Assembly (NCBI GenBank): GCA_015258715.1
Contig: JABZHR010000003.1
Span: forward strand, 48,872 to 112,871
Direction: 5' to 3'
From: Atopobium sp.
Lineage (GTDB): Bacteria > Actinomycetota > Coriobacteriia > Coriobacteriales > Atopobiaceae
DNA: 64,000 bases
Position numbers and translations under genes: made by a program. Below are positions 28,912 through 60,296 of this stretch, in pieces; within the stretch, counting starts at the first letter, position 1; the number at the start of each line of letters is the position of its first letter. The notes below the pieces were generated by a model. The model was not told where the DNA came from and searched no databases. It was given only the letters and a program-made list of their open reading frames with translations.

Positions 28912-29273
28912 AGCTATTTCCTCCCGAACGGGTACAGTATCGATTAAAAAGCCTACAGATTGTACTCGCGTTTATGGGTACCTGTCAAATTTTCTACGCA
29001 AATACCTCAACTTTTTCTCTTTTTTATTCAAAAGCCTAGCGAGAAAACCTTTCATTTTGAAAATTTCACTTGTGATAAGTGAAGAAATTTGTTGAAAGGA
29101 ATATTTCTGCAAGCTGAAATATGTCCGTTAAATGCTACTATCATTCAGTACGTCTTTCACAAAGATATAAAGTTATCTACAGATGTTTAACACTTGTTGA
29201 AAACTTTCATTCATCGTGAAAGAAAACGAAAAGTTTTCTTCATTTGTTTAACAATTGTTGAAAAGGAGGTGTC
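28912..29273. promoter_or_regulatory. AT-rich rpmH-to-origin intergenic region with DnaA-box-like motifs. It is a candidate oriC segment and carries promoters.
   Basis: Genes run on the minus strand to the left of this region and on the plus strand to the right. TTATCTACA sits at 29173-29181 and CTTATCACA near 29070. Three direct TTGTTGAAA(A/G) copies lie at 29089, 29194 and 29255. Confidence 0.5.
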
Positions 29274-30152
29274 ATGGCAAGAGATTTCTTTCCTTTTGTT
29301 GAGGAAAATACCAACCAGGATGAAAAAGACGCTGGTTCTGAAAACTCTCTCACTGTCCGCTATGCTGCACGTATTGCAGTGTATGACGATAAAGCCGCAG
29401 CACCTCGCGTTGTTCTTGTAGAACCTAAAGATGTTCGTTCTTATCTTGACGAGATTGCAGCGACAGTTAACCAGCTTGCCCACGAGCAGGGTGGAAAAAT
29501 TCCTTTTATGGTTATGCGCGAGATCGTGGAGAACTTCATTCATGCTCGCTTTGTAGCACCCACAATCTCAATTATGGACAACGGAAATACCATTAGGTTT
29601 TCAGATCAAGGACCTGGAATTAAAGAGAAAAATCGAGCTCTTGAGTTTGGTACCTCTTCTGCAACAGAAGAAATGAAATCATTTATTAGAGGCGTTGGTT
29701 TTGGTCTTCCTTATGCTCAGCAATATATGGTTGAGAAGGGTGGAAGCCTTACCCTTGAAGACAACATCTCTGGCGGCACAATTGTTACTTTATCAACACG
29801 CCGCTCTAAAGATGCTCATATTCAGACACTTCCAACTCAAGAAGAAGCTGAAGAATTGCCTGTTAATCAGAATCAGCAGGCAATTTCACATGCCCCACAA
29901 GCAGTATCTCAGCAGGCATCTGCACAACCAGCTGCACAACTTCCTAATCTGGTGTTAACAGATCGAGCAAAACAAGTTCTTCAATATCTCTCTGAACATG
30001 AATGGGTTGGAGCAACAGAGCTCACTAGTACCTTTGGCCTTTCTACACCAACCTGGTCGCGAGAGTTAAAATCGCTGGTAAACATAGGAATAATTGGAAA
30101 AGTTGGGCAAAAATATAAGCTCACCACTATTGGAGAAACCCTCCTTTCATAG
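29274..30152 (+). CDS. GHKL (histidine-kinase-like) ATPase domain fused to a C-terminal winged-helix DNA-binding domain. The protein is uncharacterised.
   Basis: AAGGAGG sits 5 nt upstream of the ATG. An N-box-like REIVENFIHARF, a G1-like SDQGPGI and a G2-like GVGFGLPYAQQ are present. A Gln-rich linker follows. The C-terminal ~70 aa are an HTH/winged-helix pattern (LTDRAKQVLQYLSEHEWVGATELTS...LVNIGIIGKVGQKYKLT). Confidence 0.6.
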   Translation: MARDFFPFVEENTNQDEKDAGSENSLTVRYAARIAVYDDKAAAPRVVLVEPKDVRSYLDEIAATVNQLAHEQGGKIPFMVMREIVENFIHARFVAPTISIMDNGNTIRFSDQGPGIKEKNRALEFGTSSATEEMKSFIRGVGFGLPYAQQYMVEKGGSLTLEDNISGGTIVTLSTRRSKDAHIQTLPTQEEAEELPVNQNQQAISHAPQAVSQQASAQPAAQLPNLVLTDRAKQVLQYLSEHEWVGATELTSTFGLSTPTWSRELKSLVNIGIIGKVGQKYKLTTIGETLLS

Positions 30153-30235
30153 AGTTTCTCAACATTATTCGCTGAAAGTTATCAACATTCCTCTATACTA
30201 GGTGTCCCAATTTTCAACATTTTGATTGGACACGT

Positions 30236-31765
30236 ATGGATGCATCAATTGATTCAGACGCAGTAGCTCTGTGGCAAGACGCAATTGACCTTTTGGTTGA
30301 AGAGAATCAGCCAGAGGCTTTTATCGCCATGTTGAGAACCTGCACTCCAATTAAAGTTGAAGATAATGCTTTATGTGCTGAGACTTCAATGCGCTTGGCA
30401 TATAACCGTATCCTTAAAAACCTGCCAATTGTTGAGAGATGTCTCTCGGCTGCTGCTTTTGAAGACATCATTTTGAGTCTTACGCTTACAAAGTCTTCTA
30501 CTCCTGTTACCACTACTTCTACGATGACTCCTCAAGAGTTCAACGCTTGGAAGCAAAAAACTGCTCCTATACAAGCAGTTGTTCCAGAGCAGATTCAAGA
30601 TTTTGAATCCCAGGAACAAAGCCTTGAAGAATTAAAACAACAGACCTTAAAGCGCCGTAAGAGTAATCCTCTTTATGAGGAGACATCTTTCAATTCAAAC
30701 CTCACGTTTGATCGCTTTGTTGTTGGTGACGAGAATGAACTTGCTCATCAACATGCTCTAAATGTTGCAAACGACGCAAAAGGTAAGGCAAACCCGCTAT
30801 TTATTTACGGTGCAAGTGGTCTTGGAAAAACTCACCTTCTACGCGCGGTTCAAAACTATATCAACTCTGAAGATATCGAACGCGTTTGTGTTTACAAAGA
30901 TGCAGATGCCTTTGTTGATGACTACGTAAATGCAGTTCGCAAAAACGCCTCAGGAAATGCCGCAACAGAACTTAGTAATAACTACCAAAACATTGATGTT
31001 CTTATCATCGATGACGTCCAAAAACTTGCTGGTAAAGCAGGTACTATTAACTTCTTCTTCAATATTTTTAACTCTCTTATTGATAGAGGTAAGCAGATTA
31101 TTCTTGCCGCCGATAGAACACCTGCTCAGCTTGGTATGGGATCTGACGGCTTTGATGATCGTATTACTTCTCGTATGAGTGGTGGCATTGTTATTGGTAT
31201 TGAGTCTCCAAGCTACGAGATGAAACTCAATCTTATTCATGTCTTCTGCGACCGCGCATTTAAAGAAAGAAATTCTTCTCTTTCTGCAGACGATTTGCCA
31301 GAGGACATCCGTCGTTACATGGCTGACAAAGCCGGCCAAAGTATTAGAACCCTTGAAGGCTTCTGTAATCGTTGTGTCACCGGACAAATCAAAGCAAAAG
31401 AGTCCGGTAAAAACATTAAGCAAGAAGAGATTGATAAGATTGCAGACACACTTTGGCGTCGCGTTTCAAAAACCGTAAATATCGAGAAGGTCCAAGAAGT
31501 CGTAGAAAATATCTATGGCATTAGTCATCGCGATATTGTTGGTAACAAGAGAAATAAAGAGATTGCAGAACCTCGTCACGTTGCAATTTATCTTGCTCAC
31601 GACCTTTGCCAATACACACTGGTAAATATTGGTAAACATTTTGGCGGAAGAAAACACGCAACTATTTTGCACAGCATTGAGGTAATTGAAGAGAGAATCA
31701 AAGAAGACAAAAGCTTCTATGATCAAATTTCTCAACTCAAGAAGACTATTCTTGAACAAAGTTAG
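30236..31765 (+). CDS. dnaA: Chromosomal replication initiator protein DnaA
   Basis: The Walker A motif GASGLGKTHLL, an AAA+ core and a C-terminal DNA-binding domain are present. Confidence 0.95.
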   Translation: MDASIDSDAVALWQDAIDLLVEENQPEAFIAMLRTCTPIKVEDNALCAETSMRLAYNRILKNLPIVERCLSAAAFEDIILSLTLTKSSTPVTTTSTMTPQEFNAWKQKTAPIQAVVPEQIQDFESQEQSLEELKQQTLKRRKSNPLYEETSFNSNLTFDRFVVGDENELAHQHALNVANDAKGKANPLFIYGASGLGKTHLLRAVQNYINSEDIERVCVYKDADAFVDDYVNAVRKNASGNAATELSNNYQNIDVLIIDDVQKLAGKAGTINFFFNIFNSLIDRGKQIILAADRTPAQLGMGSDGFDDRITSRMSGGIVIGIESPSYEMKLNLIHVFCDRAFKERNSSLSADDLPEDIRRYMADKAGQSIRTLEGFCNRCVTGQIKAKESGKNIKQEEIDKIADTLWRRVSKTVNIEKVQEVVENIYGISHRDIVGNKRNKEIAEPRHVAIYLAHDLCQYTLVNIGKHFGGRKHATILHSIEVIEERIKEDKSFYDQISQLKKTILEQS

Positions 31766-31998
31766 TGTTTAAAACCTGTTAGTAAGATGTTAATTGGTGA
31801 AGAGAAGTAATGGTTTGTTGTTGAGAGTTTAAGAGGGGGAGTTTTACTTTGTTTATGAATGTCAAAAATAAGCAAACAAATCTGACCTCTAGAAACATAT
31901 TTCTACCTCTAGAAATGTAAAGCTTTCTTCTTTTCAACATAGCTTATTATTACTACGATATTTTTATTCTTATCTAAGAAATAATAGAAAGGGTCGTC
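31766..31998. promoter_or_regulatory. AT-rich dnaA-dnaN intergenic region. It is a candidate DNA-unwinding element and second origin segment.
   Basis: The 233-bp region is very AT-rich. A TTTTCAACA motif lies at 31931-31939. A direct repeat, acctctagaaa, occurs twice. Confidence 0.4.
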
Positions 31999-33114: not shown

Positions 33115-34206
33115 GTGGGACTTAAAGTTGAACATGTTTCGCTGTATAACTTTCGTTGTTTTGCTTCGAAAGAAATAGATTTATCTGCGCAAACTACTAT
33201 CTTTGTAGGAAAAAACGCCGCAGGTAAGACAAATACTGTTGAGGCATTACAACTCCTTACTGCTGGGTATTCATTCAGAAAACCCACACCATCACAGCTC
33301 CTTCTTACAGGTACTTCTGAGGCAAAGATAGAGATTTCGCTTACAGGAGATGGAAGAAAGCTAGAAAATACCTGTACCATCACAGAACGCCGTCGCCAAT
33401 TTTCAAAGAACGGCAAGAAATGCCAGGCAGCAGATATTTCTGGTACGTTGATGTCGGTCCTTTTTAATCCTGATGATCTTTCAATGATTAAAGGTGGCGC
33501 ATCATATCGCCGAGAAGAATTCGATGACTTTGGTCGCCAGGCAAATAAAAGCTACTTCAAGGTTTTCTCGGCATATATCAAGACAGTTGAGCAAAGAAAT
33601 AAGCTGCTTAAATCTGATTGGCCAGATAATAATTTGCTTGATGCATGGGATCTTTCGCTTGCAAGGGGAGGAGCAACGCTTCTTCATGCGCGCATTCATT
33701 TGTTTGAGCGCCTGGCAAAGAAAACATGCGAGATTTACCAGGAACTTTCTGGCGGAGAGCACCTGGAGATGAACTATATTTCTTCAATTGGAGAGGTTTC
33801 TCTTGAAGCCTCTAGAGAAGAAATTACTGCTCAGTTTTTACAGGCTTTAAACGAAGCGCGCGCAGATGATATTCGTCGTCAGCAAAGTACTAAGGGTCCT
33901 CACCGAGATGATGTTGAGTTTTTGATTGAAGGTAAAGACGCTAGAAATTTTGGGTCGCAGGGTCAAATCAGAACGGTGGTCTTAGCACTTAAAATGGCAG
34001 AAGTTTTACTCTCAGAAGAAATACTTGGCGAGAAACCCCTGCTACTTTTAGATGATGTGATGAGTGAGTTGGATGAAGATCGCAGAAAAGCCATTATGGA
34101 GTTTGCATTCCATGACATCCAAACCATAATTACAACTACCAACCTTGGTTATTTCTCTGAAGAGATTTTAGAGAAAGCGCAGATAGTTAGGTTTAGCGAT
34201 GAATAA
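33115..34206 (+). CDS. recF: DNA replication/repair protein RecF
   Basis: The Walker A motif GKNAAGKTN is present, along with SMC-like signatures and a C-terminal LLLDDVMSELD. Confidence 0.9.
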   Translation: MGLKVEHVSLYNFRCFASKEIDLSAQTTIFVGKNAAGKTNTVEALQLLTAGYSFRKPTPSQLLLTGTSEAKIEISLTGDGRKLENTCTITERRRQFSKNGKKCQAADISGTLMSVLFNPDDLSMIKGGASYRREEFDDFGRQANKSYFKVFSAYIKTVEQRNKLLKSDWPDNNLLDAWDLSLARGGATLLHARIHLFERLAKKTCEIYQELSGGEHLEMNYISSIGEVSLEASREEITAQFLQALNEARADDIRRQQSTKGPHRDDVEFLIEGKDARNFGSQGQIRTVVLALKMAEVLLSEEILGEKPLLLLDDVMSELDEDRRKAIMEFAFHDIQTIITTTNLGYFSEEILEKAQIVRFSDE

Positions 34207-34732
34207 TCAACAAGAAATGCCTGCGCGTGGTGGTAATGAAAACGCAAAAGATTTAATGAGCGCTCTGCTTGGAACTTTCAGAGATTCTAAGAGTATGTCT
34301 AAAAATCGTCGCGCTTATCTTGCATGGGTTGAGTCAAATGGTGAAAGAGAAGTAGAACACACAACTGGCGTATTTGTTAGAGAAATTGCTGGTAGAGAAT
34401 ATCCTGTACTTACCGTTTATGTAGACAATCGTATGTGCATGATTGATTTTCTTGCACAAAGAGAAATCTATAGAGCAAGGTTGTCAGAGCATGGCCTGGA
34501 ATTTTCAGATCTTGAGTTTAAGCTGGATAAATACAATAGACATACTGGTAAAGAAGACGGTTCCTCAAAAGAACAACCTCAGAGTCAAAAAGTAGAGAAG
34601 AAAGTTCTTCCAGAACTCACTACAGAAGAAAAATCACAAATTTCTGAGTTAGTTTCTGGTCTTTCTGAGCCACTCAAGTCAACGGCTTATAAAGCGATTG
34701 AAGCAAGTTTTAGACAAAAAAAGAGTCTTTAG
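34199..34732 (+). CDS. DUF721-family protein (a DciA-like candidate helicase-loader) in the conserved recF-gyrB position
   Basis: The ORF is 177 aa and overlaps the recF stop. The call rests on position and size; no strong motif was seen. Confidence 0.45.
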   Translation: MNNQQEMPARGGNENAKDLMSALLGTFRDSKSMSKNRRAYLAWVESNGEREVEHTTGVFVREIAGREYPVLTVYVDNRMCMIDFLAQREIYRARLSEHGLEFSDLEFKLDKYNRHTGKEDGSSKEQPQSQKVEKKVLPELTTEEKSQISELVSGLSEPLKSTAYKAIEASFRQKKSL

Positions 34733-58356: not shown

Positions 58357-58486
58357 TTTTATGCATGCATAAAACACAGTTCTCCTGCATTTTTTGGTGG
58401 TTTATACAATTTCTGCAGTTTTCTACAGATTTGTAAGCTTTTATAAAAAGCGCAGCCATCTGAAAAGAATGGAATGTTTGTTCGAA

Positions 58487-58525
58487 CCACCCCTTTGTGA
58501 AACATAACAAAGGGGTGGTCTTTTT
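58487..58525 (+). terminator. Terminator after the ribosomal-protein cluster
   Basis: The 12-bp stem ccacccctttgt ... acaaaggggtgg is followed by TCTTTTT. Confidence 0.55.
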
Positions 58526-58856
58526 ATGTGTAGACGAAACGGTATAATTTCTTATACTCTACCTGCGGTTATTCAAAATGTTATGTAAAACATATTCACT
58601 TAACCTGCGGAATTGTAATTTGATTTGTATAACCGCAGATAAGCAATTGTGTAGAAAATACCACGTGTCGAAAAAAGTCTAAAAATTGTTGAAAACGTTG
58701 AAAACTCAAGGAAATCCCGCTCAGGGTATACGAGTTTTGGAAAATCGTGTTGAAGACTTATATTTTCGAGTTTTGCAAGCCAAAATGACTCTTTATTTTT
58801 TTGAAAAGTACACTACTATTCAGATTCATTCCCAAAAAATATGATTGGAAAAGACG

Positions 58857-60296
58857 ATGGCACAAGACTCGTTTGAGATGAATCCTACGCAATTAACGGC
58901 CCTAGAGAACGCCTCTATGCCACAAGATTCTGATGCCGAGTTTTCCATTCTTTCCGCAATGATTCTCTCGGAAGAGATTAGAGGAGAATGCCTCATTAGG
59001 CTTTCTTCCGAGGATTTTTATATTCCTTCTAATCAAATCATTTTCGAGGCAATTAAGTCGCTGTTTGACAACAACAAGCCAGTTGACGTCATTTCCCTTG
59101 CTGACCACCTGAAGAGTAACGGTAAGTTTGAACGTGCTGGAGGAGCTGTCCGTTTAGCAGAGCTTGGAAATAACCCACTTGCTATGGTTGGTTGGGAAAA
59201 TCATGCCAACATGCTGCATCGTGATACTACGCTCAGAAAGATGATTAGCGCTTCTGCAAAGATTTCTGCCCTTGCTTACAATGCTCCAGAAGATACAAAG
59301 CAAGTTGTTGACCAGGCAGAAAAGCTTATTTTTGATGTAACTAACAGGGACGTTCAGCAGTCTGAGCAGGGCATTGAAGACATCATGACTGATCTCTTTG
59401 ATGAGCTTCAGCAAAACGCTGGAAAAGATGCGGCAGAGCTGGGTGTCCAAACTGGATTTGCAACCCTTGATAACCTCTTCCAGGGTCTTCGTCCAGGTCA
59501 GATGGTTGTTATTGGTGCTCGTCCTGGTGTAGGTAAGACTTCTTTTGCGCTTAGCATGGCTTATAACGCCGCAGTATCTGGTGCAACTGTTGCGCTCTTC
59601 TCGCTTGAGATGAGCAAGATTGAGATTGCTCAGAGGCTTTTGGCTTCTGAGTCAAAGGTTGATTTGCAGACCATCCGCTCTTCCAACATCAGAAATGAGC
59701 AGTGGCCTACCCTTCTGGAGGCAGCAGAGCGCATTTCTCGCCTTAAAATAATCGTTGACGATACTCCGGGCACAACAGTCACAGAAATCCGCGCAAAAGC
59801 CCGCAGAATGCTTAATAAGGCTGAGAAGGGCGTCATTATCATCGACTACCTTCAGCTGCTTTCTCCACCAGCCGAGAAGGGCCGTGCAGACAGTCGTGCA
59901 ACTGAGGTTTCTGAGATGTCTCGTGGCATTAAGATCATGGCCAAAGACCTTAAAGCGCCTGTTATTGCACTTTCTCAGCTTAACCGTACGCTTGAGAACA
60001 GAAACGGTAAGCGCCCACAGCTCTCTGACCTGCGTGAGTCCGGCGCTATCGAGCAGGATGCAGATATTGTTTTGCTGCTTGACCGCTCACTGAGCGATGA
60101 AGAAGCCGCACGTGAAGATCGTCCTGATAAAGATGTTACTAACATCATTGTTGCAAAGAACCGTGCAGGTGCTTTGCGGGATGTTCCTGTCATGTTTATG
60201 CCAACGTCTACTAAGTTTGTTGAGCTTTACCAGGGAAATAATTACTCAGAAAGTGAAGCCGCTCAGTATGCCGCAATGGCAAACCCCGCACACTAA
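58857..60296 (+). CDS. dnaB: Replicative DNA helicase DnaB. The ATG is at 58857; the ORF extends to a TTG at 58845.
   Basis: Walker A (GARPGVGKTSFAL), Walker B (IIIDYLQLL) and the DnaB N-terminal domain are present. Confidence 0.9.
   Translation: MAQDSFEMNPTQLTALENASMPQDSDAEFSILSAMILSEEIRGECLIRLSSEDFYIPSNQIIFEAIKSLFDNNKPVDVISLADHLKSNGKFERAGGAVRLAELGNNPLAMVGWENHANMLHRDTTLRKMISASAKISALAYNAPEDTKQVVDQAEKLIFDVTNRDVQQSEQGIEDIMTDLFDELQQNAGKDAAELGVQTGFATLDNLFQGLRPGQMVVIGARPGVGKTSFALSMAYNAAVSGATVALFSLEMSKIEIAQRLLASESKVDLQTIRSSNIRNEQWPTLLEAAERISRLKIIVDDTPGTTVTEIRAKARRMLNKAEKGVIIIDYLQLLSPPAEKGRADSRATEVSEMSRGIKIMAKDLKAPVIALSQLNRTLENRNGKRPQLSDLRESGAIEQDADIVLLLDRSLSDEEAAREDRPDKDVTNIIVAKNRAGALRDVPVMFMPTSTKFVELYQGNNYSESEAAQYAAMANPAH

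Follow-up and report, generated by a model that had tools for sequence, protein, structure and literature searches.

We identify TTTTCAACA (read as TGTTGAAAA on the other strand) as very probably the DnaA box of the Atopobiaceae, where, judging from sequence comparison, it would define a bipartite-type origin at dnaA and also form a conserved cluster in the leader of dnaB. The window analysed here is a 64-kb stretch of a Lancefieldella (Atopobium) parvula-like genome with its GC-skew minimum at about 30-32 kb, which is the dnaA region; the genes flanking the motif clusters are rpmH/rnpA, a GHKL-wHTH gene, dnaA, dnaN, recF and gyrB, and a relaxed Pfam scan of the open reading frame intervening between recF and gyrB gave no meaningful match. 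The canonical DnaA box of Escherichia coli and Bacillus subtilis is TTATCCACA (consensus TTWTNCACA), its recognition is usually regarded as nearly universal, and origin-prediction tools rate boxes by their mismatches to TTATCCACA. The first-pass annotation had likened the motif to the DnaA box, with 7-8 of 9 positions in agreement, and this holds: the motif departs from TTWTNCACA in having A, G or T instead of C at position 6, for which reason we file it as a variant and not as a canonical box. Since this C is invariant in the characterised consensus, the claim of a variant box demands that specificity has truly changed. The general idea of a bipartite origin with a lineage-specific DnaA box is of a kind already known, and one of the sites has been tabulated previously.

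All copies reported in the first-pass annotation are present, namely TTGTTGAAAG at 29089, TTGTTGAAAA at 29194 and 29255, the opposite-orientation copies TTCTCAACA at 30156, TTATCAACA at 30179 and TTTTCAACA at 30211, the dnaN-side TTTTCAACA at 31931, and the tandem pair TTGTTGAAAACGTTGAAAAC at 58686-58705; the 20-bp direct repeat tgtttaacaNttgttgaaaa (29184-29203 and 29245-29264) is likewise there, with 19 of 20 bases identical. To these we add, in the rpmH-GHKL spacer, TTATCTACA (29173) and a degenerate TTTTCTTCA (29234) and, in the dnaB leader, TTTTCTACA (58419 and 58650) and TTTTCGACA (58666). The 64 kb contain five exact copies of the 9-mer TGTTGAAAA/TTTTCAACA, every one of them non-coding (four around dnaA, one in the rplI-dnaB leader). 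Related words are similarly enriched in the window: TTGTTGAAAA has 3 copies versus 0.35 expected, TTNTCAACA has 11 versus 3.8, and the family pattern TTWTCDACA has 14 versus 4.0, with none of 100 shuffles reaching either 11 or 14 for the last two. Ten of the 14 TTWTCDACA copies fall in the roughly 0.7 kb of dnaA-flanking spacers, at the skew minimum, or in the 0.5-kb dnaB leader. Canonical TTWTCCACA is found twice in the window (1.2 expected) and never in the origin spacers, so that the origin has no DnaA boxes unless the variant copies count.

We find the same motif by an unbiased ranking of k-mers in the three dnaA-flanking spacers of 66 non-redundant Atopobiaceae/Coriobacteriaceae loci, where TGTTGAAAA/TTTTCAACA is the top 9-mer, with 131 copies versus 0.4 expected from the flanking DNA. 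The tally of variants in these spacers runs from TTTTCAACA (131) through TTTTCGACA (50), TTTTCTACA (38) and TTATCAACA (30) to TTTTCCACA (13) and TTATCCACA (9), and the family consensus is 5'-(A)(G/C)TTTTC[A>G>T]ACA-3', with the canonical C as the rarest base at position 6. Alignment of orthologous spacers, a check proposed with the original observation, reveals that box positions and orientations are conserved between genera. Importantly, canonical TTTTCCACA and TGTGGATAA fill in Collinsella and Enorma the architectural slots that TTTTCAACA holds in Atopobiaceae, and canonical-type boxes are found in deep Coriobacteriia. Deep Coriobacteriia, Eggerthellaceae and Collinsella show the TTTTCCACA type, apparently the ancestral state.

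The boxes around dnaA, predicted targets of DnaA domain IV, fall into three clusters, two upstream of the gene (29090-29264 and 30156-30219) and one downstream (31931), which would constitute a Bacillus-type bipartite origin split into three pieces by the GHKL-wHTH gene; the split oriC suggested earlier fits this arrangement, dnaA being flanked by box clusters on either side in the manner of Bacillus. The outermost box, CTTTCAACA (29090-29098, minus strand; the 29089 copy noted earlier), is weak, with a family matrix score of 13.7, and is substituted in one close relative. It is followed in the rpmH-GHKL spacer by two modules, each consisting of a box and an inverted box 13 bp apart, a spacing kept in 53 of 61 inverted pairs across loci. 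The first module, conserved across genera, has TTATCTACA (29173-29181, plus strand) as its left arm and TTTTCAACA (29195-29203, minus strand) as its right arm, the latter with the top matrix score (16.7) and invariant in close relatives; within the 13-bp spacer, TGTTTAACA (29184-29192, plus strand), which matches TTTTCAACA at 7 of 9 positions and is the first half of the 20-bp repeat, may be a weak middle box, and one locus (L039) has TTTTTAACA there. In the second module the left arm is the degenerate TTTTCTTCA (29234-29242, plus strand), with TTTTCNACA at the homologous position in other genera, and the right arm, TTTTCAACA (29256-29264, minus strand), abuts the ribosome-binding site of the GHKL ATPase-winged HTH gene (29274-30152, plus strand). 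This spacer is 97% identical among close relatives, too alike for footprinting of sites. The two modules probably serve both as operator of the GHKL-dnaA transcription unit and as a platform for loading DnaA.

Between the GHKL gene and dnaA (30236-31765, plus strand), three direct boxes, all on the plus strand, lie across a dnaA promoter-like site, CTGAAA-16-TATACT (30172-30199, plus strand; 9 of 12 matches): TTCTCAACA (30156-30164) just 5' of the -35 element, TTATCAACA (30179-30187) inside the promoter spacer, and TTTTCAACA (30211-30219) just 3' of the predicted -10 element. The words CTATACT and TATAATG recur in this spacer in relatives, and TTTCAACA is found on its plus strand in 32 of 61 loci. 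Such an arrangement would be expected to let DnaA repress its own gene.

The dnaA-dnaN spacer contains a trio-proximal TTTTCAACA (31931-31939, plus strand) whose upstream tandem partner is degenerate, then a 4-bp spacer, TAGC (31940-31943), four DnaA-trios, TTA TTA TTA CTA (31944-31955; 3'-AAT AAT AAT GAT-5' on the bottom strand), and an AT-rich stretch upstream of dnaN (31956-31990), presumably the unwinding element, in which a ATATATAAA-type tract is conserved in the alignment. The basal unwinding system has been defined as three or more trios on one strand, each with A in the middle, no more than 16 bp from a DnaA box (PMC8287927), and the layout in the window conforms to it. Table S2 of the same paper gives 3'-AAAAGTTGT ACCG AATAATAATGAT-5' for A. 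parvulum DSM 20469, so the homologous dnaN-proximal site has already been tabulated, as a two-mismatch DnaA box, and the module predicted for that species. We detected the module, scored as a box and a spacer with three or more CTA/TTA trios, in 45 of 61 loci; its spacer is 4 bp long in 31 of these 45, and it usually lies 54-84 nt, most often about 60 nt, before dnaN. The module is a candidate site for opening of the origin by a DnaA-ATP filament.

A fourth cluster, of five boxes (58419-58704), occupies the leader between rplI and dnaB, the latter encoding the replicative helicase (58845-60296, plus strand; TIGR00665, 447.5 bits versus a cut-off of 385). It comprises TTTTCTACA just after rplI (58419-58427, plus strand), which is conserved in diverged leaders, TTTTCTACA at 58650-58658 and TTTTCGACA at 58666-58674 (both minus strand; all three recovered by the family matrix and the TTWTCDACA scan), and the abutting tandem boxes TTTTCAACG and TTTTCAACA (58687-58704, minus strand), which are the tandem pair of the first-pass annotation. 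The tandem TGTNGAAAACGTNGAAA is present in 19 of 19 non-redundant diverged dnaB leaders, from genomes whose DnaB is 60-81% identical to that of the window, so that several boxes in one non-coding region are conserved between species. A weak promoter-like site at 58737-58764 is the sole such site downstream of the cluster, and an Rfam scan of the window gave no match in the dnaB leader. The cluster would tie helicase expression, or DnaA titration, to DnaA; we know of no described DnaA-box cluster at dnaB.

The DnaA protein changes along with the box. According to secondary sources rather than structure coordinates, the base-contact residues of E. coli DnaA are given as R399, P423, D433, H434, T435 and H439 (PMC2533591, PMC7561715), with the helix from residue 434 described as reading TnCACA and R399 as reading TTA (PMC5742627). 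The corresponding residues of the DnaA in the window are R, V, K, H, A and H, i.e., R399, H434 and H439 are kept and V423, K433 and A435 are substitutions (E. coli numbering). The share of boxes with C at position 6 is 41% in D433 lineages, 10% in N433 lineages and 4% in lineages with S/T/K433 and A435; the contrast, which comes from few clades, has a Fisher p of about 1e-10 that, since the test is blind to shared ancestry, is no true probability. Lineages with the E. coli-type D433/T435 have C or A at this position, Atopobiaceae (S/T/K433, A435) have A, G or T, and an R-K-H-T-T lineage has A or G; the rows for Eggerthellaceae, a family for which the contrast comes from the published table only, have C (PMC8287927). 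Departure from the canonical C at position 6 thus accompanies, in the sequences compared, loss of D433 and T435. Among three deep Coriobacteriia with K-D-H-T, two use TTTTCCACA or TTTTTCACA. The third deep lineage (L162) mixes TTTTTCACA with TGTTGAAAA, the latter in its dnaA-dnaN spacer; having kept K-D-H-T, it counts against a strict coupling of residue and box. The lineage-specific DnaA-box variant put forward in the first-pass annotation draws support from this co-variation together with the top-ranked enrichment, the position in the trio module and the canonical replacement in Collinsella-type relatives.

The motif is AT-rich and includes TTGAAA, the spacers are AT-rich too, and the region is no richer than shuffles in promoter-like matches, all of which would suit copies that arose by chance or composition, as AT-rich spacer words or -35-like hexamers with no common binding protein. 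We consider this extremely improbable: the 131 copies versus 0.4 expected over 66 loci include GC-rich Olsenella-type genomes, in which the boxes are conspicuous, fixed positions and orientations are kept between genera, and one copy abuts a ribosome-binding site, a senseless place for a promoter. On position and conservation we reject the promoter hexamer. Selection on DNA cruciforms or RNA hairpins formed by inverted copies, with the structure and not a bound protein under selection, could account for the inverted repeats with 13-nt loops in the rpmH-GHKL spacer, but the two arms agree at position 6 in 22 of 61 pairs versus 23.0 expected by chance, which means that the inverted pairs undergo no compensatory change. 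Most other copies are moreover direct repeats, and the only Rfam matches in the window are tRNAs. Given the absence of compensatory variation we reject a hairpin or cruciform and give this explanation next to no weight.

A further candidate binder is the adjacent GHKL-wHTH protein, for which the motif could be the operator, alone or in common with DnaA, so that it would control the origin and dnaB. The protein contains a Pfam HATPase_c domain and a confidently assigned winged-HTH domain (structure model pLDDT 84.7); an NCBIfam search assigned it to no specific family, a Foldseek search of the model returned nothing beyond histidine-kinase ATPase domains of a generic kind and 3LMM, which is uncharacterised, and a literature search found no paper on the gene. 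Its gene is directly upstream of dnaA wherever dnaA was captured, in 76 of 80 Atopobiaceae/Coriobacteriaceae loci (the other four end before dnaA), and likewise in three deep Coriobacteriia and in L164, where the flanks are rearranged and the GHKL-dnaA linkage is retained. As the gene accompanies the motif in every locus examined, co-occurrence fails to tell this protein from DnaA as the binder; the upstream boxes, inverted pairs with a constant 13-bp spacing, could also suit a dimer. Against such an operator, the motif is an asymmetric 9-mer that shares 7-8 of 9 positions with the DnaA box, direct or tandem copies lie across the dnaA promoter, beside the trios and in the dnaB leader, and placement next to the trios is set by the mechanics of DnaA. 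Relatives that carry the GHKL gene have canonical DnaA boxes in the same slots, and the variable base follows DnaA residues 433 and 435. We therefore regard an operator role, which the first-pass annotation had offered as its other option and for which we found no positive support, as unlikely, and favour the DnaA box.

Relatives have a second co-conserved element, (T)CTACCTGCGG, in the dnaA-dnaN spacer, and it recurs in the dnaB leader; ACCTGCGG or CTACCTGCGG is too short for specificity within the window. More speculatively, the GHKL-wHTH protein might be an unrecognised ATP-dependent initiation regulator acting on DnaA or the origin, possibly through (T)CTACCTGCGG, and in parallel the Atopobiaceae DnaA might be the first natural initiator re-specified at position 6, by replacement of D433/T435; we hold this combined proposal to be conceivable, with the balance clearly against it.

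If the motif is the DnaA box, then in a whole human-associated family of Actinomycetota the box is TTTTC[A/G/T]ACA, with the canonical C disfavoured at position 6 and the base-reading residues of DnaA shifting in step, and Atopobiaceae would offer a natural experiment in the reading of the 3' half of the box by DnaA. The variant would also sharpen the prediction of origins and DnaA regulons in Coriobacteriia. Two candidate links are raised in addition: the conserved DnaA boxes before dnaB, and the GHKL-HTH gene directly upstream of dnaA.

Like the canonical DnaA box, the Atopobiaceae motif is a 9-mer without symmetry, and the two agree at positions 1, 2, 4, 5, 7, 8 and 9; the motif also clusters to either side of dnaA at the skew minimum, in both orientations and beside DnaA-trios. 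It differs in having A, G or T at position 6 (C in only 4%), mostly T at position 3 and a 5' flank preference for A-(G/C), and the DnaA differs in having S/T/K433 and A435 in place of D433 and T435. Literature searches found no description of this position-6 change in Atopobiaceae and, Table S2 in PMC8287927 apart, no paper tying DnaA boxes to Coriobacteriia; a search with the motif strings returned unrelated primer and sequence matches only. Other lineage-specific boxes are the cyanobacterial TTTTCCACA, the Thermotoga maritima AAACCTACCACC and the epsilonproteobacterial box with T at position 5 (PMC10225481, PMC7561715, PMC5043019), and these also combine a lineage-wide shift of the consensus with residue differences in DnaA domain IV; the Atopobiaceae change, in contrast, falls at position 6, regarded as fixed in the cited literature. 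The basal unwinding system of B. subtilis oriC (boxes 6 and 7, GC spacer, DnaA-trios and AT-rich element) has its parallel here in single or tandem boxes, a spacer of 4 bp, at least four 3'-[G/A]AT-5' trios on the bottom strand and AT-rich DNA, all within the dnaA-dnaN spacer, with a different box sequence and, in the window, a degenerate tandem partner upstream. Finally, the dnaB-leader cluster resembles clusters outside oriC, such as the DnaA-binding clusters and DnaA regulon of B. subtilis and datA and DARS of E. coli, in consisting of several non-coding boxes away from oriC that are conserved across genera, and is unlike them in sitting in the leader of the replicative helicase gene, where its role is putative.

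The segment of the window around dnaA is the chromosomal origin region: rsmG, khpB/jag, yidC, rnpA, and rpmH are annotated on the minus strand, a GHKL-winged-HTH gene, dnaA, dnaN, recF, an unannotated ORF, and gyrB follow rpmH on the plus strand, and the cumulative GC skew has its minimum at ~30-32 kb. The first-pass annotation had described a motif, TGTTGAAAA (TTTTCAACA on the other strand), repeated around dnaA and upstream of dnaB; every copy reported is in place, as is its 20-bp direct repeat (29184-29203 and 29245-29264), while further boxes had been overlooked at 29173 (TTATCTACA), at 29234 (TTTTCTTCA, degenerate), and, in the dnaB leader (the non-coding DNA between rplI and dnaB), at 58419, 58650, and 58666. 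We count five exact copies of TGTTGAAAA in the window, all of them non-coding, three of TTGTTGAAAA (0.35 expected), and 11 of TTNTCAACA (3.8 expected, with 11 reached in 0/100 shuffles). The family pattern TTWTCDACA occurs 14 times against 4.0 expected, with 10 copies in the dnaB leader or the origin spacers (rpmH-GHKL, GHKL-dnaA, and dnaA-dnaN); canonical TTWTCCACA occurs twice (1.2 expected), neither time in the origin spacers. The ORF between recF and gyrB (34199-34732, 177 aa) has no match in Pfam and NCBIfam searches, and similar unannotated ORFs hold this position in three deep Coriobacteriia loci (L161-L163). In other Actinomycetota, the helicase-loading factor DciA is encoded there.

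Relatives of the GHKL-HTH protein number 565 among 50%-identity cluster representatives, and an alignment of 46 of them led us to 80 genome loci, which belong to Atopobiaceae and to Coriobacteriaceae (Collinsella and Enorma among the latter). The order rnpA/rpmH, GHKL-HTH, dnaA, dnaN, recF is identical in 76 of these loci, and the other four end before dnaA. In 66 non-redundant loci, with the flanking DNA of each locus as background, TGTTGAAAA/TTTTCAACA is the most strongly enriched 9-mer of the three spacers (131 seen, 0.4 expected); counts of the variants are TTTTCAACA 131, TTTTCGACA 50, TTTTCTACA 38, TTATCAACA 30, TTTTCCACA 13, and TTATCCACA 9. Aligned sites read A-(G/C)-T-TTTC-[A 55%, G 26%, T 19%]-ACA, the canonical C being the rarest base at the varying position. 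The motif is thus shared throughout the family, and a single position in it varies freely.

Alignment of the dnaA-dnaN spacers of 37 loci reveals a conserved layout of box, spacer, and trios, with the consensus AGTTnTCnACATTTCnACA-nnnC-CTATTACTACTACT followed by AT-rich DNA. Requiring a box with up to two mismatches (position 6, C in the canonical DnaA box, being unconstrained), no more than 16 bp of spacer, and three or more [CT]T[AG] triplets, we find this unwinding layout in 45/61 loci; 31 of the 45 have a 4-bp box-to-trio spacer, and the usual distance of the module from dnaN is 54-84 nt upstream, most commonly ~60 nt. In the window, it consists of TTTTCAACA (31931-31939), TAGC, TTA TTA TTA CTA, and an AT-rich tract. 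This arrangement is the one by which PMC8287927 defines the DnaA-box/DnaA-trio basal unwinding system. Table S2 of that paper already contains the counterpart of this site in A. parvulum DSM 20469 (box 3'-AAAAGTTGT-5', spacer ACCG, trios AAT AAT AAT GAT), scored at two mismatches from TTATCCACA, together with TCAAC-type boxes in Coriobacterium glomerans and canonical TCCAC boxes in Eggerthella, Slackia, and Cryptobacterium. The window's spacer also holds a direct repeat, ACCTCTAGAAA (31885-31895 and 31905-31915), at the place where relatives have the CTACCTGCG element; it precedes the trio-proximal box by ~20-45 nt.

Upstream of dnaA, the rpmH-GHKL spacer contains two modules of a box, 13 bp, and an inverted box that are kept across genera, the 13-bp spacing recurring in 53/61 pairs; each copy of the 20-bp repeat makes up the right half of one module, comprising a weak TGTTTAACA in the spacer and the inverted box. 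Collinsella and Enorma carry canonical TTTTCCACA and TGTGGATAA beside TTTTCAACA in equivalent slots, so that variant and canonical boxes are interchangeable in position. Three direct boxes in the GHKL-dnaA spacer surround a promoter-like CTGAAA-16-TATACT, the first ahead of the -35, the second within the promoter spacer, and the third right after the -10, a layout suggestive of DnaA autorepression. Other features of the rpmH-GHKL spacer are a strong rpmH promoter-like site on the minus strand (TTGACA-18-TACAAT, 28959-28988, 11/12 positions matched), whose -10 region accounts for the conserved word AGATTGTA in 43/64 spacers, and an imperfect palindrome of the type TTCAcatcGAATTCtcagTGAA, conserved between the two modules in many genera. 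Short TTTCA(C/T) and CTTTCA words, strongly over-represented around the full boxes (28990-29230 in the window and the rpmH-GHKL spacers of most loci; CTTTCA/TGAAAG, 147 seen against 9.7 expected), are possible DnaA half-sites of low affinity.

Scanning metagenomes with DnaB yielded loci down to 60% DnaB identity, all of which keep the arrangement of rplI, a ~500-bp leader, and dnaB. Among non-redundant leaders, 19/19 carry tandem TGTNGAAAACGTNGAAA at a distance of 135-273 nt from dnaB, the 9-mer shared most widely is TGTTGAAAA (17/19), and a single box right after rplI is likewise conserved. Four of the five boxes in the window's leader (58419, 58650, 58666, 58687, and 58696) share one orientation within 55 bp, and this cluster may control dnaB transcription or titrate DnaA. 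A strong intrinsic terminator-like hairpin after rplI (58486-58519; 13 pairs, then a T run) places the cluster outside the rplI transcription unit. Besides the boxes, we observe another conserved element, (T)CTACCTGCGG(TTTT), common to dnaB leaders (58559-58568, 58601-58610, and 58633-58642 in the window; relatives L131-L160) and the dnaA-dnaN spacers of relatives (L026, L029, L042, L055, L057, L064, L070, L077, and others). TACCTGCG occurs in 12/19 dnaB leaders and TACCTGC in 13/61 dnaA-dnaN spacers, without exception 88-112 nt before dnaN, and inverted copies of the element, ACCTGCGG...CCGCAGGT, lie on either side of the rplI-proximal DnaA box (e.g., L158). The element may represent an extended, weak DnaA box of the TCTACC type or a site for some other factor.

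Base-specific contacts in the E. coli complex are made by R399, P423, D433, H434, T435, and H439 of DnaA (PMC2533591, PMC7561715), with the helix from residue 434 reading the 3' part TnCACA and R399 the 5' TTA (PMC5742627). Aligned to the 1J1V chain, the window's DnaA retains R399, H434, and H439, and its residues 423, 433, and 435 are V, K, and A, respectively. Conservation of the 5' half of the box accompanies that of R399, and the altered position 6 accompanies altered residues where the recognition helix begins. Eight Collinsella-type loci with D433 and T/S435 have C (41%) or A (57%) at position 6 and almost no G/T; four loci with N433 have A 62%, G 24%, and C 10%; and 52 Atopobiaceae loci with S/T/K/V433 and A435 have A 47%, G 29%, T 19%, and C 4%. 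Among deep Coriobacteriia whose DnaA reads K-D-H-T, two loci (L161, L163) carry TTTTCCACA or TTTTTCACA, and one (L162) mixes TTTTTCACA with TGTTGAAAA. One AT-rich lineage with R-K-H-T-T has tandem TTTTCAACA TTTCGACA. The position-6 base differs between D433 lineages and Atopobiaceae (Fisher p ~1e-10) by statistics that ignore shared ancestry; for this reason, and because the residue-to-base assignment was taken from published accounts, we infer rather than assert a causal link between the DnaA changes and the position-6 shift.

Two readings had been offered in the first-pass annotation, a lineage-specific DnaA-box variant and an operator of another replication regulator, possibly the GHKL-HTH protein, and the former is supported by the enrichment, the trio-adjacent position, the slots shared with canonical boxes, and the co-variation with DnaA. 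The GHKL-HTH protein (29274-30152) is 90-97% identical to Lancefieldella (formerly Atopobium) parvula proteins, which marks the window as part of an L. parvula-like genome. Its structure model is confident (mean pLDDT 84.7) and shows a Bergerat-fold ATPase (residues ~30-175) joined through a disordered linker to a winged HTH at the C-terminus. The motifs for nucleotide binding do not vary within the family, the closest structures are the uncharacterised DIP2311 (3LMM) and catalytic domains of histidine kinases, and no curated family name was found. Its gene adjoins dnaA upstream wherever dnaA was captured (L001-L080, L161-L164), only ~7-19 nt away in Collinsella, and the two remain paired in L164 despite a swap of the rpmH and dnaN sides; we hypothesize a role in initiation control. 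An operator would suit the confident winged HTH, the presence of the gene everywhere the motif occurs, and the inverted pairing of upstream boxes, but we do not favor it, as the motif is asymmetric, looks like a DnaA box, and also forms direct and tandem repeats, canonical boxes replace it in genomes with the same GHKL-HTH gene, and its variable base follows DnaA residues. The inverted copies might instead pair as a hairpin or cruciform; we reject this, since the variable base is equal in both arms in 22/61 pairs against 23.0 by chance, indicating no compensatory change. That the copies reflect chance or promoter hexamers is strongly disfavored, given how large the enrichment is and how their positions are fixed in GC-rich relatives.

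These comparisons support a DnaA-box variant that would work like the DnaA box of a Bacillus-type bipartite origin. The motif departs from the strict sequence definition of the canonical DnaA box at position 6, and we therefore class it as a lineage-specific variant. It is already known in part, one site having been tabulated as a mismatched box (PMC8287927 Table S2). The literature searched contained no box variant that disfavors C at position 6 with D433/T435 replacement, and both the conservation of the cluster in the dnaB leader and the linkage of GHKL-HTH to dnaA across Coriobacteriia appear undescribed. Known lineage variants include the cyanobacterial box TTTTCCACA and the Thermotoga 12-mer (PMC10225481), and in Epsilonproteobacteria position 5 of the box is invariably T (PMC5043019).
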